From Nitrospirota bacterium (GTDB lineage Bacteria; Nitrospirota; Thermodesulfovibrionia; UBA6902): a stretch of DNA of 43,991 nt. The notes beneath the pieces are model-generated. The model ran no database searches, had not been told where the DNA came from, and saw only the letters and a list, made by a program, of their open reading frames with translations. The stretch is from assembly GCA_011040095.1 (NCBI GenBank), contig DRDE01000314.1, positions 1-43,991 of the forward strand, read 5' to 3'. Position 1 is the first letter of the stretch, and every line of letters starts with the position of its first letter. Position numbers and translations under genes: made by a program. Shown here in pieces: positions 1 to 42,481 of the stretch.

Positions 1-2480
1 ATAATATGATCCTCTGTATCTATACCTTCAAATGTCAATTTGTATACAGCCCAGAATCCGCTTTTACCGAGGTAAGGCTCGATTTGAGAAACTTTATGCC
101 CGCCCTTTGTATAACATAATGTAATAGAATGAATACGTTCTGATGATTCGGTCTTTAAGTTGTTTATAATATCTTTCACCATTGGATGTCTGAGATGCAA
201 TCTCTCGGCGTCAATATCTTTATTGTGCCTGCCGACATAATAATATCCGCGGCTCATACTCTCTTTGCCCGAAATGCTGAATGATCCGGGCGCTGGATCA
301 ATCTTTAAGAGATAGCAGGCATTTGACAATTTGTATTCAGTCGGGCATAAGCTGCTTATTATTAATTTTGCAAGCATTATGTCCAAAGCACTCAAATCCT
401 GCTTTATTTTATTGTCAATTACTTTGAATCTTGCCCTGACCTCATCATCAAAGTTTTCAAGAAGCTTGGACCTTGTTTCTATTATTTTTTTATTGATCTG
501 TTCCGCAAGCTCTGCCTGGAGTTTATCGAATGCCTTATTGATTTCATCATCTGTGCGGCAGGACTGATATATGTCAAGAATGCGTTTCTCGAAATCAACG
601 CCCGAGCCTATAGAGCCAAGTATTTCATCCGAAGCGCCAAACAAGCCGCTGAAAAGTCTGAACTTCTGGTCAAGGAGTTCATATACCCTGCAGTCAGCGG
701 CAATTTTCCTGTTCAGGAAATTAAGAGCAATCACATCATATTTCTGCCCGTACCTATGGCATCGTCCTACTCTCTGCTCTATTCGCTGCGGGTTCCAGGG
801 GAGATCAAAATTTATAACAAGGTTGCAGAACTGAAGGTTAATGCCTTCTGCCCCGGCTTCAGTGGTAAGGAATATCCTGGTATGACGGTGAAATTCATGA
901 ATTAATGCGTCTCTGATCGCGACCGCCCTTGATATGTATCCTCCTGTTTCATGATGCGGTCTTTCTTTCACCCATCTGTCATAAGCCCTTTTGGCTGTTA
1001 CACCATTATTTGAGCCGTTAAAGACTGTTATCAACTCCTTATATCCATTGTCGGAAAGCAGATTGAAAAGATACTCCTGCGTCCTCCTTGACTCTGTAAA
1101 TATGACCGCTTTCTCATGCCATCCCATTTTCCTGCAGTGGGCAAAAGCCTTGTCCAGAGCAATAAGCAGTGCATCCCCCTTTGATGTCTTCTGAATGGAT
1201 TCGGCAAGGTTCCGCATATGAATCAATTCGCTTTTTTCAGCCTCCAGCTCTTCCTCTGTGAAAAATCTCCCGTTTGCGTTTTCAGTGTCTATATCTCCAG
1301 TTTCTACAGGTTCTGTATCCTCTCTTTTGGCGATTTCTTCGGATTCTTCTTCATAGCCGTCAACATCATCAAGCAATTCACTTATCTGAATGGTTTTTTG
1401 ATCGGATAACAACTTGTTAATATTGTTAATCAGCCCGTTAAGCGTTTTTGCAATCGCAAAACTTGAACTCGCAAGGATTTTCCAAAAAACCAATATTAAA
1501 AGGTGACGATATTTCGAGTTTATAGCTGCAACATCGGGCCTTCTCAAATACTCTGAAACAAGTTCATAAAGCTCGGCTTCATCATCAGTCGGCGTAAAAT
1601 CCTCTACCATTGACAAACGGTTTGTGTAGCGGACATATTCCTGAACCTGCCGCCTGAGAGTCCGCACCGCAATACCCGATATCCGTTCTTTTAAAGTCTC
1701 CTCATTTACAGACTCACGCCCGTTGTTGTCTGCCAGAAACATCTTTCTGAACGAATATTCAGAGCCAAAGGTCTTGTCTTCAATAAAACTCACCAGTCCA
1801 TACAGTTCCATCAGGGAATTTTGCAGCGGAGTTGCTGTCAGGAGAAGCTTGGGAATTCCGGCGAATAACTTTTTAAGCGTCCTGGCCTGCTTGCTGCCGG
1901 ACTTTTTATAAACATTCCTCAGGCGGTGCGCCTCATCTATTACCACCAGGTCCCATTTACCCACTGCCGCAATTTCAGCGCTTTTTGAATAAGCAAAGGG
2001 GATGGAAACAATAACGACTGCATTTCTTTTAAAGGGGTTTGTTTTTCCGTTTTTTTTAGACGCCCGATATTCGAATCCGTCAACTATAACACCCGGCACG
2101 TCAAACTTTTCGCGCAGCTCATTTTGCCACTGCTGACGTATGGGCGCCGGTACTACAGCGATAATCTTTCGTTTACCTTCCGCCCATAACTGGCTGATCA
2201 CCAGTCCCGCTTCAATAGTCTTTCCAAGGCCGACTTCATCGCAGAGTATTGCCCCGCGCGACATCGGAGATTTAAAGGCAAAGAGCGCCGCATCTACCTG
2301 ATGGGGATTCAGGTCAACCATTGCTGCTGAAAGAGGGGATTCCAGTTTCTTCAGATCATGCGCTGCCCGTTTGAGTGTGAGTTCATGGGCGGTTATGATT
2401 TGGTGGAAAAGGGGGAGTATCTTGAAATTATCACAATAATCGTCAAGTCCTTGGCGTGTACTGCCTGATGATTTCTTCAT
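1..2480 (-). CDS. SNF2-family (RapA/Rad54-like) helicase/ATPase, N-terminal >826 codons; ORF runs off the left edge of the window
   Basis: Absent from the ORF track because there is no stop inside the window. My own translation from the ATG at 2478-2480 stays open to position 1 (MKKSSGSTRQGLDDY...). Helicase motifs: I CDEVGLGKTIEAG, II VVIDEAHRLRN, III LLLTATPLQNSLMELY, V TTEAGAEGINLQ, VI DLPWNPQRIEQRVGRCHRYGQ. The short + strand ORFs at 331-1911 are its shadows. Confidence 0.85.
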   Translation of the reverse strand, partial: MKKSSGSTRQGLDDYCDNFKILPLFHQIITAHELTLKRAAHDLKKLESPLSAAMVDLNPHQVDAALFAFKSPMSRGAILCDEVGLGKTIEAGLVISQLWAEGKRKIIAVVPAPIRQQWQNELREKFDVPGVIVDGFEYRASKKNGKTNPFKRNAVVIVSIPFAYSKSAEIAAVGKWDLVVIDEAHRLRNVYKKSGSKQARTLKKLFAGIPKLLLTATPLQNSLMELYGLVSFIEDKTFGSEYSFRKMFLADNNGRESVNEETLKERISGIAVRTLRRQVQEYVRYTNRLSMVEDFTPTDDEAELYELVSEYLRRPDVAAINSKYRHLLILVFWKILASSSFAIAKTLNGLINNINKLLSDQKTIQISELLDDVDGYEEESEEIAKREDTEPVETGDIDTENANGRFFTEEELEAEKSELIHMRNLAESIQKTSKGDALLIALDKAFAHCRKMGWHEKAVIFTESRRTQEYLFNLLSDNGYKELITVFNGSNNGVTAKRAYDRWVKERPHHETGGYISRAVAIRDALIHEFHRHTRIFLTTEAGAEGINLQFCNLVINFDLPWNPQRIEQRVGRCHRYGQKYDVIALNFLNRKIAADCRVYELLDQKFRLFSGLFGASDEILGSIGSGVDFEKRILDIYQSCRTDDEINKAFDKLQAELAEQINKKIIETRSKLLENFDDEVRARFKVIDNKIKQDLSALDIMLAKLIISSLCPTEYKLSNACYLLKIDPAPGSFSISGKESMSRGYYYVGRHNKDIDAERLHLRHPMVKDIINNLKTESSERIHSITLCYTKGGHKVSQIEPYLGKSGFWAVYKLTFEGIDTEDHI

Positions 2481-2487
2481 GAGATAT

Positions 2488-4083
2488 TCACGCCCCGCTT
2501 TTTAGGTGATAGTTCTGTTTCATTATTAATATTTTTTCAAATAAATCCATGCACTTTTTATAGAGAAAAGAGTCTGTTGGGGTTATGCCTGTATCTGCTT
2601 GTAATTTATCCAAAGTTTCCTTCTGGGAATGACTTTCAATATTTTTCATTATTTCTGCTAAACCGATTCCGGCATATAGATACGGCTGGAGTTCTTCCAA
2701 CTCGTCTATAGATAAGATAATCCATGATGGGGAATTAATGTTATGCGTGTTATTAAGCAATTTATTTACATGCTTCTCAAACAAGAAAGAGTTTATGAGG
2801 TAAAACGACCCAAAAGAAACGAAAACAGATATGACTTTTGAACAATCATGAAATTCTTCAAGCCCTTTTGCCTTTGTAAGAATTGCATTTCTAAATTCAT
2901 GAAGTCCAACCAGCCCTTTTATAACCTGTTTTAAACTATTATTAATATCCTCTTCTGAGGCAGTTGTTAGAGCAACCCTTGAAAACTTTGTTGCCTTTAC
3001 TTGAAAAATAATGGCCGTATCCCCTTCGACTACAACCCAGTCAGGTAGTTTCCCTTTTTTGTATTTTCTCTTAATCATATCTTCAGAGTATATCTTGCAT
3101 CTATTTATTGAGTTTTCAAGAATTATCCCCACATACTCTTCAAATATAAGTCCGAACCATTGTGAAAACTCTTCTAAATAATTATTGAACATTTGATAAT
3201 AAATACCCGTTGATATTCTGTAGCATATAAGATTGGGAATGGGTGCAGTTAATCTGTCAGAATCCATTCCTAACAAGGGGCTGTCTTTCCATGGCCTTAT
3301 TATAGGATAGGAAAATAAAGGATTAAAATCGTATGCTCTGAATCGTCTGTCTCTGTTTTTGCGGTTTTCAAAAACTCCTCGGAACTGTGTAGGTGTGGCC
3401 GAAACATTATTTAAAATAGTTACGGTAGTGTCGTCATCAGGAAGTTTTAGCCCTTGTTGTCGGGCGACTTCAAAATAGCCTCTTGCAAATCCTGCTTTGC
3501 TTTGTGCGGCAGACCAGGCAACCAGTCCAATCGACAAAAAATCTTCAAGTGTTGCTCCGGTTATCTTTTGAAATTCAAAATGAAAATCAAACGCTGGGAC
3601 ATCTTTCCTTTTTTCAGCCCTTTTTATTGCTTCACCATAGAGAATCAGGGTTTGAGAGTAAGAAGCATAGGGATTGACGTTGTAGGAAAACTGGCTTGCT
3701 GAATGTCTCAGAGAAAGGAAGATCGGATTTTCTTCTTTGAATTTTTCAGCGAGTTCTTTATCAAAAGTAATTGGATCAGCTAACAGATAGTTTGTAACCA
3801 GCATTTCAAGCTGGGACAATGCATACAAGTCAAAGACCTTTCCATTTCTGTGAGGATTTGTAAAGCGAACAGCAAAAGAGGCGATACCAGCAGCAGTAAA
3901 AAATGGCAGACCCTTCGGAAGAAAGCGGTGGATATCAGAATTTGGATTTTCTAATTCTTTCAGTGCATTATTTACAGATATAAGAATATCATTTGATTTA
4001 AATTTTCTTATCTCATGTTTTATCCTGCTCTCAAGTTTATCTATATTTAGAGAGCCATTGCTATTAAAAAAAGTTTTATCCAA
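2488..4083 (-). CDS. Hypothetical 531-aa protein with a putative PD-(D/E)xK-like nuclease core (E...D...QxK)
   Basis: Long intact ORF. Its stop is 7 nt before the SNF2 start, and its start overlaps the PIN gene stop by 8 nt. Core pattern: FGLIFEEYVGIIL (helix with E), KLPDWVVVEG (D at a strand start), AIIFQVKATKF (QxK). The function is inferred from this pattern only. Confidence 0.6.
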   Translation of the reverse strand: MDKTFFNSNGSLNIDKLESRIKHEIRKFKSNDILISVNNALKELENPNSDIHRFLPKGLPFFTAAGIASFAVRFTNPHRNGKVFDLYALSQLEMLVTNYLLADPITFDKELAEKFKEENPIFLSLRHSASQFSYNVNPYASYSQTLILYGEAIKRAEKRKDVPAFDFHFEFQKITGATLEDFLSIGLVAWSAAQSKAGFARGYFEVARQQGLKLPDDDTTVTILNNVSATPTQFRGVFENRKNRDRRFRAYDFNPLFSYPIIRPWKDSPLLGMDSDRLTAPIPNLICYRISTGIYYQMFNNYLEEFSQWFGLIFEEYVGIILENSINRCKIYSEDMIKRKYKKGKLPDWVVVEGDTAIIFQVKATKFSRVALTTASEEDINNSLKQVIKGLVGLHEFRNAILTKAKGLEEFHDCSKVISVFVSFGSFYLINSFLFEKHVNKLLNNTHNINSPSWIILSIDELEELQPYLYAGIGLAEIMKNIESHSQKETLDKLQADTGITPTDSFLYKKCMDLFEKILIMKQNYHLKSGA

Positions 4084-4573
4084 TTTTTTTCAATCTCTTT
4101 AGAAACTCAATCAGAATTTCTTCTCTTATTCGATATCCCTTTTGCATTAAATCGAGTGATAATAATTCCGTAGTTTCCCGGTCAATCATACCGGACTTAA
4201 AAGAATCCCATAATATACCGAGAGTCCCCTTTGTTTTTAATCCCCTGAATCTGGCGACAGTCCTTGCTTTTGCTTCATCTATTAGAACTATGCCGATCTT
4301 ATTTCTGACAGCAAGACTTATAACAGCTCTTTCACCGGAGCCGAGAAAGTGCGGCAGGTTTTTTAAAAGAGGAGTTTTCACAGCCTCTATTTTTCTGCTA
4401 TCAAGATAGTGTATTATCTGTTGTGCATCTTCTTTTCGGAGCTTGAGACCTCTTGCAATTTCTGCTTCTACCTGTGATGGAACATAAAGTTTGAAATTAT
4501 CAAGAAGTTCGAGCCTGTTTATCTTTCCGAGAAATATCAGAGGGGAAGCATTGCAAACCACCCTATCAGGCAT
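4076..4573 (-). CDS. PIN-like DUF3368-family toxin, partner of the UPF0175 antitoxin
   Basis: The track ORF is 4076-4654. The likely true start is the internal ATG at 4571-4573 (MPDRVVCNASPLIFLGKINRLELL...), which overlaps the upstream stop as TAATG. Family-typical segments: NASPLIFL, GSGERAVISLA, VLIDEAKAR, KGTLGIL. Confidence 0.75.
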   Translation of the reverse strand: MPDRVVCNASPLIFLGKINRLELLDNFKLYVPSQVEAEIARGLKLRKEDAQQIIHYLDSRKIEAVKTPLLKNLPHFLGSGERAVISLAVRNKIGIVLIDEAKARTVARFRGLKTKGTLGILWDSFKSGMIDRETTELLSLDLMQKGYRIREEILIEFLKRLKKIG

Positions 4574-4854
4574 TATCTTATATCCTCTGCAAGCTCTTCC
4601 ATTGAATAGTCTATATGTATGTCCGCTTTCTTTATTTTCTCTATCATCTCCCATATGTCTATTGAAAGCATTCCAGCGGCTTTCTGAAGGGTTATCTTCC
4701 GGCTTCTGTAAAGTTGAAGGACATTTTTTTCATTTAAAACGAGAAGTCCCTGTTTTAACGCCTTTGGTATGATGTCCTGGACTTTTACACCATATGTTTT
4801 AGAGACTCGTTCAGCTTCTTTGTATAAATTTTCTTTTAGTTTTACAGACTTCAT
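4573..4854 (-). CDS. UPF0175-family antitoxin
   Basis: 93-aa ORF. The C-terminal LQLYRSRKITLQKAAGMLSIDIWEMIEKIKKADIHIDYSMEELAEDI matches the usual UPF0175 pattern (LY..g.iSlgkAAe....s..ef...l.k.gi......eel.eDl). It is coupled to the DUF3368 gene. Confidence 0.75.
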   Translation of the reverse strand: MKSVKLKENLYKEAERVSKTYGVKVQDIIPKALKQGLLVLNEKNVLQLYRSRKITLQKAAGMLSIDIWEMIEKIKKADIHIDYSMEELAEDIR

Positions 4855-4866
4855 TTTATCCCTCCA

Positions 4867-5118
4867 TTAATTGAGCTTCTTCTCGAAGCCAATCATTTCG
4901 TTTTCAGGCACTGCGTTTATTACATAGCCGCATTCTGAAAGATAATCATCAAGTGTCCCCATTTCTTTCATCTCGGCAAACTGTATTTTTACCACCTCAT
5001 CAAGGTTGGCTTTTGCCTCTTCAATAGTCCGCCCCTGAGCAATAAAATCCAGTTCAGGGATTTTGGCTATACACCATTCCCCTTTCTGCCATAACTCAAT
5101 CGTTGATTGTAATTTCAT
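4867..5118 (-). CDS. HicB-like (UPF0150) antitoxin-fold protein, with no adjacent HicA
   Basis: 83 aa. ELWQKGEWCIAKIPELDFIAQGRTIEEAKANLDEVVKIQFAEM fits the HicB N-terminal fold pattern (..g.w.A.vPel.g..tqG.TleEA..nl.eai). Confidence 0.65.
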   Translation of the reverse strand: MKLQSTIELWQKGEWCIAKIPELDFIAQGRTIEEAKANLDEVVKIQFAEMKEMGTLDDYLSECGYVINAVPENEMIGFEKKLN

Positions 5119-5181
5119 TTAAACCTCCCGACAGTTTTCCATTATGGCCGTTATCAAGCGCTTATTAATTATATCAAAGAG

Positions 5182-8100
5182 TTATGAATCTATCATTTCT
5201 CCGTTTTCGTTGTTGTCTAAATCACTTTGGACGAATGTATCCTTATATTTTTCAAAACCTGTACCCGCAGGGATTAACCGCCCCATAATGACATTTTCTT
5301 TTAATCCCTTCAGGTGATCAACATCTCCTTCAATAGCCGCCTCTGTTAATATCCTGGTTGTCTCTTGAAATGACGCTGCTGATATCCAGCTATTTGCTGA
5401 CAAAGCTGCTTTAGTGATTCCAAGCAACACTGGCTGACCAACTGCCTCTTTTCCACCATCTAATGAAACAACGACATTTTCTTCGAGAAATTTACGTCTT
5501 TCTGTAATTTCTCCCATCAGAAACATAGTGTCGCCTGGAGCTGTGATCTTTATTTTTTCAGTCATTTTTCTGATGATAATTTCAAAATGCTTATCATTAA
5601 TTTTGATATTATTCGCTTTATACGTTTTTTGAAGTTCGTTCAGGAGAAATAAATGAACTTCTCTTCCCCCTTTATCGTTAAGTATTTTATGTGGGTCTAT
5701 CAAAGTTTTGTCTTTCGGCCTTCTTGCCTCAAAAAGTTCGATAATTCTGAATAAATCAATGACGGGCATTTCATCTTCTGTCTCACATCTGCCTGATCTG
5801 CGGCTGTTCAAAACAAACTGTGTTCCGGGTTCTCCTATTGACTGGGCTGCCAGGATTCCGACAGCCGTGCCTGTTTCAACTGTCCTGCCGGTTGATAAGT
5901 CCCGACCATAACATCTTGCGCATACGCCGTTTTCGGAAAGGCATGTAAGAACAGACCTTGCTCTCACCTTTTTAATGCCGGCATCGGTTATTCGTCTGGC
6001 AACGCTATTAGTAATTTCTTCGTTTAATCCCAGTATAACTTCCCCTGTTTCAGGATTCCGTATCTCCTCGGCCGATATGCGTCCTGTTATTCTGTCATCA
6101 AGCTTATGAATAATTTTTTTATTTACAACTATTTCATCTAATGTAATTCCGTCTCCTGTGGCGCAGTCTTCTTTTTGAATAATAGTGTCCTGTACCACAT
6201 CTATAAGCCTTCTTGTTAACCATCCGGCATTTGCAGTCATCATCTCTGTATCAATAATACTGTTTCTCGCTCCGGTAGATAACATAAAATATTGAACAGG
6301 TGAAAGACCTTCCTTAAAATTTGCCGTAATAGGATACTCCATAAACTTTTCCGAAGGCTTCACTATATGTCCCGGCACCATTCCGGCAAGCCTTATTAAC
6401 AGGGCAGCAGAGTTTTTTGCGCCTGAGTTGATCATCATATGAATGTTGTTCCCTTTGTCCTTCTTAAGTTCTGTCACTATTTCATTGTTTATAATTCCGG
6501 CAGCTTTTTGCCAAGTCTCTGTAACAGCATCTCTTCGCTCTTCAGTGGAAATGGTTTCATCATCTTCACTTTCATTTGCATTTATGAACCCGTATACATG
6601 CTTCTGGGCATCTTCAACTACCGCCTGTTTACATGAGGGTACACGTATATCATCCATGCTTATAGATATGCCCGATCTTGTGGCATACTCAAATCCGATC
6701 CTCATGAGACGGTCAAGGACTTCGGCTGTGTCCTGTCTGCCGAAATCGTTATGCAGGAGCATCACAATTTCTTCAAGACAGTTTTGTGTCACTGTCCGGT
6801 TTACTTTTTCAAAAGGGAACCCGCATGGGAATATATCATACAAAATGACCTTGCCTGCGGTAGTATCATGAAGACTCTCCTGTATTCTAACTTTTATCTT
6901 TGAGTGCTCATTTATAAATCCTGAATCATAAGCGTGTCTTACTTCATCGGCGCTGGAAAATACGGATGGGCAGGTCTCAGCGTCAGGCATATCAGCCGTT
7001 AAATAATAGATACCGAGAAGCATGTCCTGTGTCGGCATTGCGGCAGGTTTGCCGTTTGCAGGGTTTAAAATAGTGTTAACAGACATCATCAGCGCCCTTG
7101 CCTCTACCTGCGCCTCTATTGATAAAGGAACATGGACAGCCATCTGGTCACCGTCAAAGTCAGCATTGAATCCCTTGCATACAAGCGGGTGCAGCTTTAT
7201 CGCCTTACCCTCAACAAGTACCGGGTCAAATGCCTGCATTCCGAGACAGTGAAGAGTCGGCATTCTGTTAAGAAGCACAGGATGTTCCCTGATGACTTCA
7301 TCAAGGCAGTCCCAAATGATATCCTCTCCACGTTCAACGACTTTCTTGGCAGCTTTGATCGTGGTGACAAATCCTTTTTCTTCAAGTTTGCTGAATATGT
7401 AAGGTTTAAACATTTCAATGGCCATTTTCTTCGGCAATCCACACTGATGAAGCCGTAGTGCCGGGTCCGGCACGATGACGGACCTGCCGGAGTAGTCAAC
7501 TCTTTTACCGAGAAGGTTCTGCCTGAAGCGGCCCTCTTTACCCTTTATCATGTCGCTTAAGGACTTAAGCGGCCTCTTGGTTACTGCCTTTAGTACACGG
7601 CTCCTCCTCCCGTTGTCAAAGAGTGCGTCAACAGCTTCCTGGAGCATCCTTTTTTCATTTCTGATAATGACACTGGGGGCATTCAGTGCCATCAGTCTTT
7701 TCAAGCTGATATTTCTATTTATAACCCGTCTATAAAGATCGTTTAAATCTGAAGTGGCAAACCGTCCGCCTTCAAGCGGTACCAACGGTCGAAGGTCAGG
7801 TGGCAACACGGGAATAACGTCCATAACCATCCACTCCGGTCTGTTCCCTGATCGTCTGAATGCCTCCACAACTTTTAATCTCTTTGCAAGTTTTTCTTTC
7901 GTGGTTTTGGCATTTGTCTGTCGTATCTTTGCTCTAATGTCTTTTGCCAGAGTATCAAGGTTAATCTTTTGCAGGAGTACTTTTACCGCTTCAGCGCCAA
8001 TACCTGCCTTGAATTTATCGCCGAACTCCTGGACCCTTTTTCTGTATTCCTCACCTGTCAGAAGTTCTTTTTCTTTTAACTTTGTTTCACCGGGGTCAAC

Positions 8101-8538
8101 GACTATATAACTTTCAAAGTAAAGCACCGTTTCAAGCTGGCGCATGGTCATGTCAAGCAGTGTACCGATAATATTTTGACGACCTTTCCAGTACCATATA
8201 TGGGCAACAGGTGTGCACAGCTCTATGTGACCGAGCCTTTCACGTCTTGCCTTTGCCTGTATGACCTCAACCCCGCATTTGTCACAGACAACCCCCCTGT
8301 GTTTCATTCTCTTATATTTGCCGCATATGCATTCCCAGTCTTTGACAGGACCAAATATTTTTGCACAGAAGAGCCCATCACGTTCAGGCTTGAAAGTTCT
8401 ATAGTTTATGGTTTCCGGATTTTTTACTTCTCCATAAGACCATTCCCTTATTTTTTCAGGAGAGGCGAGGCTTATCTTAACCGCATTAAATGTCGTTAGA
8501 TTTTTGGGCTTTTCAAATATTGAGTAGATATCTTCCAT
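5182..8538 (-). CDS. rpoC: RNA polymerase beta-prime subunit paralog: orphan (no rpoB adjacent) and divergent in the trigger loop, F-loop, bridge helix and jaw
   Basis: 1118-aa ORF. N-terminus FNAVKISLASPEKIREWSYGEVKNPETINYRTFKPERDGLFCAKIFGP; Zn ribbon CICGKYKRMKHRGVVCDKCGVEV; catalytic NADFDGDQMAVHVPLS; C-terminal FQETTRILTEAAIEG...KENVIMGRLIPAGTG. Divergences are listed in the findings. Confidence 0.9.
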   Translation of the reverse strand: MEDIYSIFEKPKNLTTFNAVKISLASPEKIREWSYGEVKNPETINYRTFKPERDGLFCAKIFGPVKDWECICGKYKRMKHRGVVCDKCGVEVIQAKARRERLGHIELCTPVAHIWYWKGRQNIIGTLLDMTMRQLETVLYFESYIVVDPGETKLKEKELLTGEEYRKRVQEFGDKFKAGIGAEAVKVLLQKINLDTLAKDIRAKIRQTNAKTTKEKLAKRLKVVEAFRRSGNRPEWMVMDVIPVLPPDLRPLVPLEGGRFATSDLNDLYRRVINRNISLKRLMALNAPSVIIRNEKRMLQEAVDALFDNGRRSRVLKAVTKRPLKSLSDMIKGKEGRFRQNLLGKRVDYSGRSVIVPDPALRLHQCGLPKKMAIEMFKPYIFSKLEEKGFVTTIKAAKKVVERGEDIIWDCLDEVIREHPVLLNRMPTLHCLGMQAFDPVLVEGKAIKLHPLVCKGFNADFDGDQMAVHVPLSIEAQVEARALMMSVNTILNPANGKPAAMPTQDMLLGIYYLTADMPDAETCPSVFSSADEVRHAYDSGFINEHSKIKVRIQESLHDTTAGKVILYDIFPCGFPFEKVNRTVTQNCLEEIVMLLHNDFGRQDTAEVLDRLMRIGFEYATRSGISISMDDIRVPSCKQAVVEDAQKHVYGFINANESEDDETISTEERRDAVTETWQKAAGIINNEIVTELKKDKGNNIHMMINSGAKNSAALLIRLAGMVPGHIVKPSEKFMEYPITANFKEGLSPVQYFMLSTGARNSIIDTEMMTANAGWLTRRLIDVVQDTIIQKEDCATGDGITLDEIVVNKKIIHKLDDRITGRISAEEIRNPETGEVILGLNEEITNSVARRITDAGIKKVRARSVLTCLSENGVCARCYGRDLSTGRTVETGTAVGILAAQSIGEPGTQFVLNSRRSGRCETEDEMPVIDLFRIIELFEARRPKDKTLIDPHKILNDKGGREVHLFLLNELQKTYKANNIKINDKHFEIIIRKMTEKIKITAPGDTMFLMGEITERRKFLEENVVVSLDGGKEAVGQPVLLGITKAALSANSWISAASFQETTRILTEAAIEGDVDHLKGLKENVIMGRLIPAGTGFEKYKDTFVQSDLDNNENGEMIDS

Positions 8539-8705
8539 TAATCATCCCCTTATTTGCAAGTATCCAGATTTTAACATAAAGAAGGTAATAGAAAGGAAGA
8601 AAAAGCTTTACATCCAGAGTTCCAATTTGCCTTGATTGTGTAACATATTGTATGTTTTCTTGAAGAGTACATAACAAGACTAAAGATATTTGGATTGCAA
8701 AACTT

Positions 8706-10331
8706 ATGAAGATCAACAATGCAAAAGACATTCATAAATATGTTGAGGCCCTTATTAACAACATGCCTTTGTTTAAAATGCCAAGATATGAAGCATTACT
8801 CCACGTCCTGCGAACGATGGAGGCGCTTTTTACACGTGGAAGTATATCTGAACGCTCGGAAGCAAATCTTATTATGGCTAACAGGGCTTTCCAGGATATA
8901 CTTCGTTATATGGTTTATTGGACTTACAGTATATGTCCTGAAGGAGGCAAGATTTTGTCAACGCCAGCTAACTGTAAAGAGATGATTAAAGAAACAATCG
9001 AGATTGCAGAAAGTTACAGTAAAGTTTTTGACTTTATAAAAGCGGAAGAAATGGGAGATGTGTCATTTAATATTAATAAGCACTCCAAAATTATAGGAAT
9101 TGAGTACTTGAATGAAGAAGCGGGTAGATCGTTTGGTCTTCATGAATTTTTTAAGGGGAAAGAGTTAGGTAATCAATCTAAAAATTTCTTTGGCAATGAA
9201 TCCGGAAACATGGAAAATATGTTAAAAGCTAAGGAAGAAATCGAAAAATCTATTAAAATCAAGAATAAGAAAGAATTCATTTATTCGCGAAGTAAGTTTG
9301 TTTTTAAGACATTTGAGGAATTATCTGAAAATATTATTTCACAGATGTTTTTGATGCCTGAAGGATGGTCATTGGGGTTTTATACAATTGGCAATTTTAA
9401 ACTTTTCTGGAAGCATCTCTTGAAAATCGCAATAATTCATCAAGTAGCCTTCATAAGTTATGTAGAGAAAATGATTAAAGGTAATAAAAACATATCATAT
9501 GATAATGCTGTACGCTGCGACAATAAAAAAGATTTAGTTAATCATATTCATATGTATTCCGGGCTGGAGAAAAAAGTTATTAATAACATCATACAAGACT
9601 TGATTTATGATAATGCAGTGAAATGGACTGATATCATGTTTCAGCCGCTTTTTCAAATTGAAAATAAAATTATTTTTTCTCCAAACGTAATTGTTGGGAG
9701 TAGAGCAGAGAGAAATATTAATGTCTTAATGAGTAAAATTAATCCAACAGCATATAATGATCTAACATCTAATAAAGAAGATGGGATGATTTCTGAATTC
9801 AGTAACACTTTGAGAGAGAACAGATATTTTTTCGAACCAAGAGTAAAACTAAAAGAGGATGATAAAGTTATTACAGACATAGATATTCTTGTGTGGGACG
9901 AGAAAAAAGAAAACATCTTATTAATGCAATTAAAGTGGCTTTATGGTGCTGATGCGACTCAGGAAATTTACAATCAAGATAAAGAATTTGCAGCAGGAAT
10001 TGCTCAAGTAAAAAAGTCTGTGAATTTTATTAAGAGAAATTCTTCATATCTATCAAGATTTGGACTACGCCCTAATAACGTTTTCGGTATTGTTATTAGT
10101 AAGCTTGGTCTTCCAAGCCCTTTTCTAAATAAAGAAAATGTCATATTGGTTGAATCCGAGCAAATAATAGAAAATCTTAAGGCTGTTCCCGGCAATATAA
10201 AAAAACTATATACCTTCCTCGAACAATCTTCATTACCCAAAAAGGAAATAGCTGAATGCACATTGAATGTTAAGGAAAAAATAATCGGTCAATACACTTT
10301 CCGATTACCTGTTGTTTCATGCAAGGTTTGA
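8706..10331 (+). CDS. Hypothetical 541-aa protein with a putative PD-(D/E)xK-like nuclease core; distant paralog of the 531-aa protein
   Basis: Long intact, very AT-rich ORF divergent from the rpoC paralog. Core pattern: GMISEFSNTL (E), VITDIDILVWD (D), ILLMQLKWLYG (QxK). It shares FxPLF and post-core motifs with ORF 2488-4083. Confidence 0.6.
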   Translation: MKINNAKDIHKYVEALINNMPLFKMPRYEALLHVLRTMEALFTRGSISERSEANLIMANRAFQDILRYMVYWTYSICPEGGKILSTPANCKEMIKETIEIAESYSKVFDFIKAEEMGDVSFNINKHSKIIGIEYLNEEAGRSFGLHEFFKGKELGNQSKNFFGNESGNMENMLKAKEEIEKSIKIKNKKEFIYSRSKFVFKTFEELSENIISQMFLMPEGWSLGFYTIGNFKLFWKHLLKIAIIHQVAFISYVEKMIKGNKNISYDNAVRCDNKKDLVNHIHMYSGLEKKVINNIIQDLIYDNAVKWTDIMFQPLFQIENKIIFSPNVIVGSRAERNINVLMSKINPTAYNDLTSNKEDGMISEFSNTLRENRYFFEPRVKLKEDDKVITDIDILVWDEKKENILLMQLKWLYGADATQEIYNQDKEFAAGIAQVKKSVNFIKRNSSYLSRFGLRPNNVFGIVISKLGLPSPFLNKENVILVESEQIIENLKAVPGNIKKLYTFLEQSSLPKKEIAECTLNVKEKIIGQYTFRLPVVSCKV

Positions 10332-10391
10332 ATTAATTTGTAAAATTATATAATATTCCCCCAAAACTGGAGGGAGTAATAAGGTGGAAAC

Positions 10392-10637
10392 TTAGCCTGT
10401 CAAAACCCGAAGGAGGAAAGACAGGATGAAAAACATACGAAATATAGTGCATAAGGCAAAGGGATCAGGATTGATTTTGGGGAGATCTATGGGGAGTTTT
10501 ATTTTACCCTTTACAGCCCGTTTGGCGCCGGGGCAGATCAAGACATGATGAGAGCCTTGTTTCCGTTTATATTTGCAGCCGTATAGCTCAAATATCTTTA
10601 ACTGTATTTTCCAGTCCGTAGGGAATATTCTCGGCAT
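10392..10637 (-). CDS. HicA-like toxin with an atypical, possibly degenerate C-terminal half
   Basis: The N-terminal KIFELYGCKYKRKQGSHHVLICPGAKR matches the HicA/YcfA pattern (..L...Gf...rqkGSHhvl..pg..r). The remainder (KGKIKLPIDLPKINPDPFALC...) does not look like HicA. The ATG directly abuts the TAA of the HicB relic. Confidence 0.45.
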   Translation of the reverse strand: MPRIFPTDWKIQLKIFELYGCKYKRKQGSHHVLICPGAKRAVKGKIKLPIDLPKINPDPFALCTIFRMFFILSFLLRVLTG

Positions 10638-10905
10638 TTACGCAACCTGAACCAATTTCTTCTCGAACCCGATCATTTCGTTTTCAGGCACTGCGGTATC
10701 GTCTTTAATTACATAACCGCATTCTGAAAGATAATCATCAAGTCCCCATCTCTTTCATCTCGGCAAACTGTATCTTTACCACCTCATTAAGATTAGCTTT
10801 TGCCTCATCAATAGTCCGCCCCTGAGCAACAAAATCCAGTTCCGGAATTTTGGCTATGCACCATTTCCCCTTTTGCCATAACTCAATAGTTGCCTGTAAT
10901 TTCAT
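10638..10905 (-). pseudogene. Frameshifted second copy of the HicB-like gene
   Basis: Nucleotide-level copy of 4867-5118. It has a 2-nt deletion (catcaag--tcccca versus catcaagtgtcccca) that creates ...AEMKEMGT-stop, and a 9-nt in-frame insertion near the 3' end. Confidence 0.7.
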
Positions 10906-10981
10906 TATAAGCCTCCTTAAATTTATATATTCTGATTATACAAAAATTATCGAGCGCGTCACTCTTTCTTTTTGCCATACA

Positions 10982-11348
10982 CTATACGATATCCTCTGAA
11001 AGGTCTTCCATTGAATAGTCTATATGTATATCAGCTTTCTTTATTGCGTAGCCCGGGTTTAATACCCCGCCCCTTGGGGCGTTCATTGCTTTTAAAGATA
11101 CCCCGTCCGCTTGCGGCGGGGTAGTTCATTTTATCTATCATCTCCCATATGTCTATCGAAAGCATTTCAGCGGCTTTTTGAAGGGTTATCTTCCGGCTTC
11201 TGTAAAGTTGAAGGACATTTTTTTCATTTAAAACGAGAAGTCCCTGTTTTAACGCCTTTGGTATGATGTCCTGGACTTTTACACCATATGTTTTAGAGAC
11301 TCGTTCAGCTTCTTTGTATAAATTTTCTTTTAGTTTTACAGACTTCAT
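10982..11348 (-). pseudogene. Second copy of the UPF0175 antitoxin gene, interrupted by an 85-bp palindromic element; no PIN partner
   Basis: The first 60 codons are identical to 4573-4854 and only 2 of the first 73 differ. The track ORF 11031-11348 reads through into the insert. After the insert the original frame resumes (KKADIHIDYSMEDLSEDIV-stop at 10982-10984). Confidence 0.75.
11046..11130. repeat. REP/MITE-like insertion made of two GC-rich hairpin units
   Basis: Present in copy 2 of the UPF0175 gene and absent from copy 1 at the homologous point (ctttatt|ttctctatcatc). Units: ataccccgccccttggggcgttcatt and ataccccgtccgcttgcggcggggtagttcatt. Confidence 0.65.
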
Positions 11349-11431
11349 TTTATCCCTCCCGATGGAATAAAAGATGAGGTTTTAGGAGAAGAGAGAGGGA
11401 GTTCAGATAGGCGCTTATCCGATTAGCTTTT

Positions 11432-11707
11432 TTATACTACTTTAACTTTTAATTGTCTTCCAAGGGCTTGAGCAAATTTCTCTAATGTTGATAGACGAAT
11501 ATCTTCAGAGTGATTTTCAATTCTGGAAATTGCAGACTTCTTTGTACGCAGTTTTTTTGCTAATTCTTCTTGTGTGATTCCTGCCTTTTCTCTTGCCATC
11601 TTAAGGGTCACTCCTATTTTAAAATCTTGATATCCAGCTTCAAAATCCTTTGTAAATTTCCGGCTTTTCTTTTTCCGTTTACTTATGTATTTTTCAAGAT
11701 CATCCAT
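11432..11707 (-). CDS. XRE-family HTH antitoxin (HigA-like), partner of the Gp49/RelE-type toxin
   Basis: 91 aa. MAREKAGITQEELAKKLRTKKSAISRIENHSEDIRLSTLEKFAQALG is a classic Cro/C1-type HTH. Confidence 0.8.
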   Translation of the reverse strand: MDDLEKYISKRKKKSRKFTKDFEAGYQDFKIGVTLKMAREKAGITQEELAKKLRTKKSAISRIENHSEDIRLSTLEKFAQALGRQLKVKVV

Positions 11708-11754
11708 TATTTTTCCTCCTGTTTATATAATCACGCTTTCGTATTTCCGCAAGC

Positions 11755-12057
11755 TCAATTTCTTTTTTTTGGTGTTTTCCGAGACTTCTTTTGAAATCCA
11801 TGTGTTAGAATAATTAAATTAGCCCCATCATTAAAACCGAGAAACCTGTAGATATTATTTCCAACCTGCACTCTAACCTCCCAAATGCCATCTGTATTAA
11901 TCAGTTTCTTAAAATATGACCTTGGAACATCATCAAAATCTCTTATTATTCGTAACACCCATGCAACTTTTTTTACTATTTTGTCAGGCAAAGTATCCAG
12001 GAAATTTTCAACAGGACACTTGCCGGATACCGTTTTATAAAATACAATTTTACGCAT
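11755..12057 (-). CDS. Gp49-like (DUF891) RelE/HigB-superfamily toxin; C-terminus apparently truncated by a frameshift in an A8 run
   Basis: [43 protein letters not shown] fits the family pattern (lwElR......yRil.f.....ivllhgF.KKtqktPkk). With one fewer A, the -1 frame continues as [20 protein letters not shown] and ends in an ATGGATGA overlap with the antitoxin start. Confidence 0.75.
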
Positions 12058-12091: not shown

Positions 12092-12126
12092 GGGAAAATA
12101 TTTTGAAAGATAAGGATATCTATTCG

Positions 12127-12285
12127 ATAATGGCCGTTATCAAGCGCTTATTAATTATATCAAAGAGTTATAAATCTATCATTTCTCCGTTTTCGTTGTT
12201 GTCTGAATCGCTTTGAACGAATGTATCCTTATATTTCTCAAAACCTGTACCCGCAGGGATCAACCGCATATGTCCCGGCACCATT
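12127..12285 (-). pseudogene. Deletion remnant of a second copy of the rpoC paralog (3' end plus downstream spacer)
   Basis: 12127-12267 is a near-identical copy (a few mismatches) of 5141-5281. It is followed directly by 18 nt (12268-12285) identical to 6365-6382. The junction is in frame: MVPGHM-RLIPAGTGFEKYKDTFVQSDSDNNENGEMIDL-stop. Confidence 0.8.
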
Positions 12286-41094: not shown

Positions 41095-41394
41095 GTGAGA
41101 TATAGATTTGACGATTTCAGGCTTGAAAAGCTTTATTTGTACGGAACCGGAAGCGAACGATATCCTCAGGGCATAGTGGATGTTTTCATAAGGCGGGTAA
41201 GGACTATTGAAGGAGTCCTGGATGAGCGGAATTTAAGAGCTTTAAAAAGCCTGCACTTTGAAAAGTTGAGAGGAGAAAGGAATAAATATTCCATAAGGCT
41301 TAATAAGGGATGGAGACTAATATTAACAATTGAAAAAGATAAAGATGGGAAGACTTTGGTGTTAATAGAAATTAATAACCATTATGGAGATTAA
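41095..41394 (+). CDS. higB: HigB-type (plasmid maintenance system killer) toxin
   Basis: 99 aa, GTG start. LRALKSLHFEKLRGERNKYSIRLNKGWRLILTIE...LIEINNHYGD matches the HigB/RelE-fold pattern (..lh.LkG.r.g.ySirin.qwRlvF.....). Confidence 0.75.
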   Translation: MRYRFDDFRLEKLYLYGTGSERYPQGIVDVFIRRVRTIEGVLDERNLRALKSLHFEKLRGERNKYSIRLNKGWRLILTIEKDKDGKTLVLIEINNHYGD

Positions 41395-41395
41395 A

Positions 41396-42481
41396 ATGGA
41401 AGATAAAAAAAGGCCGTTTCGGCCAATACCGCCGGGCGAAATAATAAAGGAAGAACTGGATGCGCGCGGCTGGACCCAGGGAGACTTTGCAGAAATTACC
41501 GGTAAGCCTTTACAGGCGATTAACGCAATAATAGCAGGAAAAAGGGCAATTATTCCGGAAACTGCCATTCTCTTTTCTAAAGCATTTAAGACTTCCCCGG
41601 AATTCTGGTTGAATCTTGAATCAGCTTATCGGCTGGACATGCTGCATCAGGGGCAGCATAAGGTGGATATTGTTTCACGAAAAGCAAAACTGTACGGTAT
41701 TGCTCCGGTAAAAGAATTGATAAAGCGCGGCTGGATAAAGGCGTCAGAATCAATCAGCCGGTTGGAAGCAGAAGTTATGGACTTCTTTGGTATTTCTGAT
41801 ATAGAGACCCCTCCTTCAATAGCAACAAATTTTCGTAGAATTATTGATACCCCGGCACTCATGGCATGGGTGAGAAAGGCAGAAATAGAGGCAAGGAAAA
41901 TGTCCTGTTCTAAATTTGATCCGAATAAATTTAAGCAATCTATTAAACAATTGCCCGGATTCTCAGCGAGTGATACATTGACCGGTCAAATTCCCCAAAA
42001 ACTCTGTAAATTAGGAATCCGCATTGTATTTATACCGCATTTACCTCAGACTCGTGTAGACGGGGCTGCGTTTTGGCTTGACAATAAGATGCCGGTTGTT
42101 GCTATATCTCTGAGAATGGACAGAGCTGATAATTACTGGTTTACCTTGATGCATGAACTTGCTCATTTATTAGAAAGCTACAGGAATAATGTTAGCTACA
42201 TCGACAACGATATAGCTGGTGAGCCGGAAAACAAAATTGAAGAAAAAGCCAACAATACTGCACATGACATGCTGATCCCGCCGGATAGTTTTAAGCTTTT
42301 TGTGAAGCAGAATAAACCATATTTTTCCAGAAATGTCGTTATCTCATTTGCACAGGAACTCGGTATACATCCTGCAATTGTTGTTGGCAGGTTACAGTAT
42401 GAAGAGTTGATTCCATATACACATCTACGCAATTTGATAAGCAAGGTACGCCCTGTATTGAGTGAATATGTTAAGGCTTAG
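41396..42481 (+). CDS. HigA-like XRE HTH antitoxin fused to an ImmA/IrrE (COG2856) zinc-metallopeptidase domain
   Basis: N-terminal PPGEIIKEELDARGWTQGDFAEITGKPLQAINAIIAGKRAIIPETAILFSKAF..SPEFWLNLESAY (HigA). C-terminal YWFTLMHELAHLL (HExxH). The track ORF begins at 41384; ATG 41396 follows the higB stop by 1 nt and has a GGAG SD. Confidence 0.75.
   Translation: MEDKKRPFRPIPPGEIIKEELDARGWTQGDFAEITGKPLQAINAIIAGKRAIIPETAILFSKAFKTSPEFWLNLESAYRLDMLHQGQHKVDIVSRKAKLYGIAPVKELIKRGWIKASESISRLEAEVMDFFGISDIETPPSIATNFRRIIDTPALMAWVRKAEIEARKMSCSKFDPNKFKQSIKQLPGFSASDTLTGQIPQKLCKLGIRIVFIPHLPQTRVDGAAFWLDNKMPVVAISLRMDRADNYWFTLMHELAHLLESYRNNVSYIDNDIAGEPENKIEEKANNTAHDMLIPPDSFKLFVKQNKPYFSRNVVISFAQELGIHPAIVVGRLQYEELIPYTHLRNLISKVRPVLSEYVKA

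Follow-up and report, generated by a model that had tools for sequence, protein, structure and literature searches.

Class 1 DISARM systems combine the methylase gene drmMI with adjacent drmA, drmB (DUF1998) and drmC (PLD) genes (bioRxiv 10.1101/2021.12.28.474362), and GAPS1 has been experimentally shown to be a single-protein anti-phage system (bioRxiv 10.1101/2023.03.28.534373). The plant RNA polymerases known as Pol IV and Pol V keep the DFDGD motif, their trigger loop is modified or lost, and they silence transposons together with the SNF2 ATPases CLSY and DRD1 (PMC7714444). Additional genes for core polymerase subunits are also found in bacteria, as in Francisella with its two rpoA genes (PMC3294249). 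Here we analyze 43,991 nucleotides (nt) of the Nitrospirota contig DRDE01000314.1, referred to as the window, whose left ~8.5 kb hold a gene module that begins with a paralog of rpoC, the gene for the β′ subunit of RNA polymerase (RNAP), and ends with an SNF2 ATPase gene. We know of no precedent for a bacterial β′ paralog tied to an SNF2 gene. The textbook view holds that bacteria possess one core RNAP, diversified by sigma factors only, and a second β′ under purifying selection would break this rule.

Literature searches on rpoC paralogs, on polymerase decoys with SNF2 and on anti-phage rpoC returned no description of the β′ paralog or of its pairing with SNF2, and neither PADLOC v2 nor NCBIfam holds a model for the paralog as a defence component. 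The association is undescribed within the literature searched, in agreement with the initial annotation of the window, which was made from the sequence alone and named no known system of this composition. It is neither DISARM nor RapA.

Conserved synteny of the β′ paralog and SNF2

The two ends of the module are formed by the gene for the β′ paralog (5182–8538, minus strand; 1118 amino acids (aa), TIGR02386) and by that for a DrmD-like SNF2 ATPase (1–2480, minus strand; PF00176 and PF00271), of which the first 826 of 1003 aa lie in the window. The full length was read from L002, the contig of the window extended leftwards; all other L-numbers denote loci read for comparison. Twelve distinct loci were read for the close SNF2 subclade. 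A paralog-type β′ gene is found upstream of SNF2 and on the same strand in ten of them (the window, L008, L009, L010, L098, L099, L100, L103, L105 and L108), and the SNF2 proteins of the paralog-linked loci are 55–68% identical to that of the window. In L108, 51 nt separate the two genes. The remaining two are L011, from which the β′ gene has been deleted, and L101, which has an SNF2 gene and a gene for a protein here called X. L092 carries β′, UPF0175 and PIN genes up to the contig end, and L107, with an SNF2 at 53% identity, has the arrangement of the broader SNF2 family with a DrmMI-like methylase. None of 79 broad-family SNF2 loci from GTDB genomes (40–45% identity) has a β′ gene.

The pairwise identities of the paralog and of SNF2 are correlated (Mantel r = 0.64, p = 0.001); the two genes form a conserved, co-inherited and co-diverging unit. 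Chance juxtaposition was rejected, given this synteny and the different sites that the block occupies in L008 and L098, as described below. The initial annotation had listed all six minus-strand genes as a candidate system. The idea stands for the pair, conserved in 10 of the 12 loci, but the six genes are not one fixed system, as the toxin–antitoxin (TA) and nuclease-like genes between the two ends can be swapped.

An extra copy under purifying selection

The β′ gene of the window is a true paralog, an extra copy. In neighbour-joining analyses eight paralogs separated from 20 canonical Nitrospirota β′ proteins in 200 of 200 bootstraps, and their clade is 2.5 times more divergent than the canonical one (within-clade p-distance 0.40 versus 0.16). 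Both members of the pair are under purifying selection, with dN/dS values of 0.15–0.20 for the paralog and 0.10–0.15 for SNF2. The paralog gene is cleanly deleted in L011, where the leader is retained, and frameshifted in L098, where it is split into three open reading frames (ORFs). The NCBI accession run that contains the L008 paralog (MBI4847957) and the SNF2 protein encoded four genes later (MBI4847961) also includes a canonical β′ of 1360 aa (MBI4848881). The family is small, forming only 3 clusters at 50% identity among 1.84 billion representatives. A pattern scan of Joint Genome Institute (JGI) metagenomes gave seven matches, five of them paralog loci and mostly truncated, and a paralog-specific DNA pattern had no match in IMG/VR. 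Carriage of the module by a phage was rejected on this absence from IMG/VR and on the chromosomal character of the remainder of the window.

The 44-kb window contains no rpoB, so the paralog does not occupy an rpoBC-operon position, and at most other loci it has its own predicted promoter. The exception is L105 (GCA_021847795.1; 1–7504), where the order is rpoB, β′ paralog, UPF0175, PIN, GapS1-like and SNF2. There a canonical-looking rpoB (TIGR02013, 1852 bits) ends 1 nt before the start of the paralog, which points to a partnership of the paralog with β. A test of the L105 gene for canonical/paralog recombination found too few diagnostic columns in the N-terminal part.

An ordinary rpoC that drifted after its separation from rpoB, or a chance pile-up of island cargo without any special module, would be in line with a TIGR02386 score above the cut-off and with the L105 gene that directly follows rpoB. 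Such an origin is nevertheless very improbable in view of the bootstrap separation and the lost trigger-loop residues, jaw and insertion, the deletion in L011 and the frameshifts in L098, the canonical β′ in the accession run of L008, and a synteny that is kept in ten loci with unrelated flanks. That the gene is an rpoC paralog, as first annotated from the window, is thus supported by the tree, by the loss of the jaw and insertion and by the fate of the gene in L011 and L098.

Sequence features of the paralog

The window paralog scores 1468 bits against the rpoC equivalog TIGR02386 (cut-off 963.5). Its metal site NADFDGDQMAVH is intact, and it shares with rpoC proteins the motif FNADFDGDQMAVH and both zinc sites (CxC...CxxC; C...CxxxxxxCxxC). 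NADFDGD is kept across all paralogs read, with one variant SADFDGD, and so are both zinc sites. Its closest relatives are canonical Nitrospirota β′ proteins of ~1365 aa, with 66% identity over the first 82% of the protein.

Alignment with canonical β′ and with other short β′ proteins defined the derived characters. The trigger-loop motif MRTFH has become LNSRR in the window and is of the xDxRH type in the relatives. The paralogs are without the canonical trigger loop (MRTFH together with the second helix TGGLPRV), F-loop and jaw, and in this they depart from rpoC. An acidic insert takes the place of the F-loop GLITxGERYNKV, and the change of VIVVGPE to VIVPDP is a derived character common to the members. 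The rim-helix tip is shortened by ~15 residues, the SI3-like trigger-loop insertion (~190 aa) and ~57 jaw residues are absent, and the bridge helix is degenerate in some members. Compared with the canonical consensus, residues 1–560, the clamp and sigma-binding N-terminal half, are 69–85% identical, residues 561–930 are 36–56% identical, and 88% of residues 931–1200 are deleted. Judged from these alignments, the paralogs appear to keep the parts needed for RNAP assembly and Mg binding. The description of the copy as catalytically eroded in the initial annotation has to be corrected, since the metal site is intact in all members and the changes sit in the trigger loop, the F-loop, the rim helices, the jaw and some bridge helices.

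Some paralogs carry additional segments. A helical insertion of ~95–170 aa follows residue ~418, between AKKxVE and xWxxLxEV, in L008, L010, L092, L093 and L105, and is missing from the window paralog and from canonical β′. L093 has a long acidic insertion where the jaw would be.

The SNF2 ATPase

The GLGKT, DEAH and QRxGRxHRxGQ motifs of the SNF2 protein are intact. Its best profile matches are DrmD models, at 658 bits in PADLOC and 656.5 bits for NCBIfam NF038318 (E ~1e-196 to 1e-197), the latter below the equivalog cut-off of 950 and confined to profile positions 22–672 of 868, the helicase core. A search with the full protein revealed a sharply bounded subclade of ~40 clusters at 53–68% identity, the next matches following at 48–42%. 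The broad family beyond it has at least 584 genomic matches at 40–45% identity, spread over many phyla and with the same full-length architecture. In that family SNF2 opens the operon, a type III methylase (60 of 80 loci) and a restriction helicase (40 of 80) close it, and cargo such as Abi, an SMC-like ATPase, HerA, DUF2130, the YhcG nuclease and AIPR is embedded in between. The SNF2 protein of the window is therefore a member of a broad DrmD-like family that normally stands beside type III restriction-modification genes. The operon of SNF2, variable cargo, type III methylase and type III restriction helicase itself (L012–L090, from GTDB genomes) was not found named as a system.

In this context, the relationship to RapA, on which the initial annotation had built its argument, needs qualification. 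The protein is DrmD-like and not a RapA orthologue, scoring 160.7 bits against the RapA family model PRK04914 (cut-off 576), but RapA is its nearest solved structure. By sequence the match has an E of 7e-33 and begins at RapA residue ~145. By fold, ~1060 columns are aligned at template modelling (TM) scores of 0.43–0.54, reaching past the ATPase core to nearly the full chain, whereas eukaryotic remodellers align over ~580 columns. An N-terminally truncated RapA gives the best fold match, and the N-terminal RNAP-binding domain of RapA has no counterpart; the PDB holds no DrmD structure for comparison. An AlphaFold2 (AF2) model (67-sequence alignment, predicted local distance difference test (pLDDT) 81) displays the ATPase core, a β-rich domain at 715–855 and, at the C-terminus, a long coiled coil. 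Residues whose conservation is confined to the paralog-linked subclade cluster at 100–150 and in the C-terminal helix 935–1002, with charge reversals, and this region is a candidate partner surface.

With DrmD models as best matches and a broad family that lies beside MTase_III and REase_III or DrmMI, the module might be a truncated class 1 DISARM or type III restriction-modification system with an accessory SNF2, the rest of which lies beyond the window edge. This is a far-fetched explanation for a protein that scores below the DrmD equivalog cut-off and whose surroundings are visible. The initial annotation had suggested looking leftwards for a methylase or further components; in L002 the SNF2 gene ends at 1003 aa and is followed by a TA pair, with neither a methylase nor drmABC. 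Unrelated or opposite-strand genes come after SNF2 in L008, L009, L098, L099, L103 and L105. Downstream of SNF2, drmMI and drmA, drmB and drmC are absent from L002 and from these same six loci. Every paralog-linked locus lacks the Mod (MTase_III) and Res (REase_III) genes that the broad family has. A continuation of either system off the window was rejected, as the extended contig and seven related loci show none. Both this reading and that of a drifted rpoC are largely excluded.

Exchangeable cargo and its transcription

Between the two conserved genes of the window lie four genes on the minus strand. The first encodes a HicB-like antitoxin (4867–5118; weak match to Pfam UPF0150, E 1e-3) that shares 77% identity with the L008 HicB, whose gene is followed by that for HicA. 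No HicA toxin was found in the window, and a complete HicAB pair is missing there. The next two form a pair, a UPF0175 antitoxin-like protein (4573–4854; PF03683, E 1e-11) and its partner, a DUF3368 PIN-like toxin (4076–4573), as the two halves of the PADLOC candidate PDC-S70. They match the PDC-S70 hidden Markov models with E 3.6e-31 and 2.3e-07, and their genes overlap by 1 nt. The fourth gene (2488–4083) encodes a 531-aa GapS1-like protein (putative PD-(D/E)xK) and occupies a variable effector slot directly upstream of SNF2. It matches the GapS1 model NF047931 over residues 166–466 (E 4e-27), with 95 bits well below the cut-off of 320, and its single-sequence AF2 model has a pLDDT of 34.

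The cargo varies by locus. L105 has UPF0175, PIN and a GapS1-like protein 54% identical to that of the window in the same slot; L009 has UPF0175, PIN and DUF4238; and L100 has UPF0175, PIN and a TIR-like protein. L010 carries a small ORF and DUF3368, L098 an antitoxin, PemK, a PIN remnant and a PDC-S60/S35-like gene, L008 HicB, HicA and a 137-aa protein, L099 an antitoxin, PIN and a 250-aa protein, and L103 an IS200-type transposase and RES, and L108 has nothing separate. UPF0175/PIN is the most frequent pair and a recurrent one, with UPF0175 homologues in the same position in L009, L092, L100 and L105. The middle genes are thus swappable TA pairs and single-gene defence effectors. Of the 531-aa family, whose gene neighbourhood had been suggested as a check on the module, a homologue occurs in the slot of L105; elsewhere this place is taken by DUF4238, TIR-like, RES or unknown proteins.

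The slot is also linked to SNF2 by a rearrangement. The free X protein encoded upstream of SNF2 in L101 (423 aa; 8736–10007) and the first 285 residues of the L108 SNF2 protein (10001–10855) show 36% identity, a relationship that by sequence is best described as a gene fusion or fission event. At least one effector-slot family therefore appears physically tied to SNF2. A SprT-like gene is found on the other side in both L101 and L108.

The six genes, their coordinates and their spacing agree with the ORF list and thus with the initial annotation. After β′ come a 63-nt gap (5119–5181, minus strand), a 12-nt gap, the UPF0175/PIN overlap, read directly as TAATG, an 8-nt overlap and a 7-nt gap. 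A scan found no terminator-like site at any minus-strand junction, again as annotated; the sole minus-strand match in 1–8538 is weak and lies inside the β′ ORF. The β′/hicB junction holds an extended −10 promoter-like site, TGATATAAT, at 5196–5168, which reaches into the 3′ end of β′. The single transcription unit first proposed is therefore possible as one long transcript across the module, but internal transcription starts are likely.

Effectors and toxins embedded between two conserved genes recall a guard arrangement of the kind in which the restriction enzyme EcoprrI holds the anticodon nuclease PrrC. Along the lines of the decoy or sensor suggested in the initial annotation, a non-transcribing β′ paralog would bait phage anti-polymerase proteins, whose binding would release SNF2, the toxins or the slot effector. 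The X protein, fused to SNF2 in L108 and separate in L101, is compatible with such a device, as is the strong conservation of the N-terminal clamp, zinc and sigma-binding half, the target of some phage inhibitors. However, the jaw, the trigger-loop insertion and the rim-helix tip, all deleted or shortened here, are classic docking sites that a bait should keep; T7 Gp2, for example, binds the jaw. In addition, the catalytic triad and both zinc sites are invariant at a p-distance of 0.40, which would be needless for a pure bait, the cargo differs in almost every locus, and L108 is without a separate TA or effector gene. We regard the decoy as quite unlikely, weakened as it is by the deletion of surfaces for phage inhibitors and by the retained triad. 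A better fit is the other suggestion of the initial annotation, an island-borne accessory module for transcription or RNAP remodelling.

Mobility of the block and cassette duplication

The loci L008 and L098, from related genomes, share their flanks, consisting in this order of MacA, ABC, FtsX, FtsX, NfeD, radical SAM, aminotransferase and adh_short genes. In L008 the block separates the ABC ATPase gene from FtsX, and in L098 it comes behind adh_short. At the DNA level SNF2 is 85% identical between the two loci and the flanks 70–79%, and dS is lower for SNF2 than for the flanks. The limits of the block, set within ~30 nt, are the leader of the β′ paralog and the stop codon of SNF2. The block, framework genes included, moves as a unit and is horizontally mobile. 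No terminal repeats of the block were found, the only repeats being internal duplications in the window, and the window has no tRNA and no Rfam match. A tyrosine recombinase gene lies directly upstream of SNF2 in L011 (L011 5440–7785), and in L103 (10001–11170) an integrase-like sequence, 28% identical to the L011 recombinase, is fused in frame to the SNF2 N-terminus.

The leader travels with the block. In the window (8539–8705, minus strand) it contains a probable promoter for the paralog, with a T-rich stretch, the −10-like TAAAAT and, 7 nt ahead of the ATG, a GGGGA ribosome-binding site. An alignment of the leaders of the window, L008, L098, L011, L009 and L010 shows that the promoter-like segment and the ribosome-binding site are conserved, and L098 and L011 share a 52-nt segment with 90% identity.

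Upstream of the intact module, parts of it are repeated on the minus strand in a changed gene order. A remnant at 12123–12267 is a 94% copy of the 3′ end of the β′ paralog with the promoter-like site downstream of it. It is followed by a pair of a Gp49/HigB-like toxin and a helix-turn-helix (HTH) antitoxin (11432–12057; PF05973 and HTH_3 family), a second UPF0175 copy (10980–11359; 88–98% identical) and a second, frameshifted hicB copy (10657–10906; 90–95% identical), so that the HigBA-type pair is placed between the β′ remnant and the duplicated TA genes. These direct repeats appear to be what is left of an older or second module, or a trace of cassette exchange. Just past the left edge of the window (L002 5322–6295) lie another HigB/HigA pair and a VapC-like remnant.

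Duplications of this kind, with TA cassettes shuffled beside a copy of the β′ 3′ end, would also be seen at an insertion hotspot, where paralog and SNF2 do an ordinary job, such as stress transcription or the rescue of stalled polymerases, and TA and defence genes merely accumulate. The cargo is swappable and of types that can stand alone (GAPS1 and DUF4238 need one gene each, and TA pairs are autonomous), tyrosine recombinases lie beside or within SNF2 genes in L011 and L103, and the broad SNF2 family likewise embeds cargo between SNF2 and Mod/Res. We nevertheless consider a hotspot unlikely. It is the whole block with its framework genes that is mobile, rare and patchy, as the three clusters of the paralog family indicate, and β′ can be lost, as in L011. 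Moreover, the relatives of SNF2 are all tied to restriction-modification or DISARM-type genes, which is unlike a housekeeping function. Even on this least exciting reading, the locus would represent a newly recognized, conserved slot of Nitrospirota into which TA and defence genes integrate.

A proposed variant polymerase and its motor

Taken together, we favour, with a probability of about one half, a mobile Nitrospirota-type module with the promoter and β′ paralog at its 5′ end, the DrmD-like SNF2 at its 3′ end and interchangeable cargo in between, whose variant polymerase and motor act in conflict. The paralog would assemble with the β, α and omega subunits of the host and replace β′ in part of the RNAP of the cell; this assembly is suggested by the conserved assembly, sigma-binding and catalytic-centre parts and by the translational coupling to rpoB in L105. 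The resulting polymerase would lack a jaw, and the periphery of its active site and its secondary channel would both be changed. It may be slow, and may respond neither to regulators of the secondary channel nor to inhibitors docking on the deleted parts. Its dedicated DNA-translocase partner would be SNF2, comparable to RapA for bacterial RNAP and to CLSY and DRD1 for Pol IV and Pol V, and the pair would act in conflicts with phages or mobile DNA. For example, with the normal polymerase shut down, the pair might keep the module and its cargo transcribed or act on foreign DNA. The TA and effector genes in the slot could be hitch-hikers, or effectors that the pair holds in check. By analogy with Pol IV/V and CLSY/DRD1, a variant polymerase with a dedicated motor in defence is our best guess. 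A full bacterial counterpart of Pol IV/V, in which the paralog builds a specialised polymerase with its own SNF2 translocase for genome defence, mobile and recruiting effectors, is a possible but doubtful extension of this analogy.

Several points weigh against the proposal of a variant polymerase with its motor. SNF2 can persist alone, as L011 and L101 keep it without β′. Its architecture is the same as that of relatives working with restriction-modification genes and, with the RapA N-terminal domain missing as well, nothing in it is visibly adapted to a polymerase. Binding of the paralog to β or to SNF2, with which it is genetically linked, is a prediction, and the defence role is suggested by neighbours and family ties. 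The trigger-loop changes could leave any polymerase containing the paralog nearly inactive. All paralogs come from metagenome assemblies of uncultured organisms, and the evidence that their genomes also have a canonical rpoC is the numbering of accessions, together with the dispensability of the paralog in L011 and L098.

Should the pair work in immunity, it would represent a transcription-machine-based branch of prokaryotic defence, convergent with plant Pol IV/V. The paralog family also offers a natural experiment on which β′ elements are dispensable, among them the trigger-loop residues, jaw, rim helices and F-loop.

The remainder of the window

The remaining part of the window is ordinary chromosome with genes for cytochromes, chemotaxis, FtsH, NadE and DegP. 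Divergent from the promoter of the β′ paralog lies an ORF of 541 aa (8706–10331, plus strand) with 30% G+C in a neighbourhood of ~40–45%. It has no match in Pfam, NCBIfam or PADLOC and was not seen in the other loci. Far from the module, at 41384–42481 on the plus strand, a protein combines HTH_3 with Peptidase_M78 (ImmA/IrrE-type), a combination typical of mobile-element or prophage regulation.

Comparison with known systems

The cargo is where the module comes closest to catalogued anti-phage genes, as the 531-aa protein and the UPF0175/PIN pair match the models of GAPS1 and PDC-S70. Here, however, they are cargo and not core, and the GapS1 score is far below its cut-off. Extra copies of core-subunit genes, such as the rifampicin-resistant second rpoB copies in actinomycetes and the paralogs of rpoA, are comparable in that they presumably assemble with the remaining host subunits. 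They differ from the β′ paralog in keeping full catalytic quality and in having no tie to an SNF2 gene or a cargo slot.

The SNF2 protein shares with DrmD-like helicases its top profile matches and the full-length architecture, and cargo is embedded in the operons of the broad family as well. In the paralog-linked loci, by contrast, SNF2 is without a methylase, Res or drmA/B/C, and its conserved partner is the β′ paralog upstream. RapA/HepA of E. coli is likewise a bacterial SNF2 protein linked to RNAP, RapA physically and the SNF2 of the window genetically. RapA, however, is encoded by a lone housekeeping gene, unpaired with a β′ paralog, and has an N-terminal RNAP-binding domain.

The likeness to plant Pol IV/V with CLSY1-4 and DRD1 is a functional analogy only. 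The metal-A triad is kept, the trigger loop is rewritten, an SNF2 protein is the putative partner and the neighbourhood is of a defence type. The plant enzymes go back to an independent duplication in another domain of life, and nothing in the loci read here points to small RNAs, DNA methylation or chromatin.

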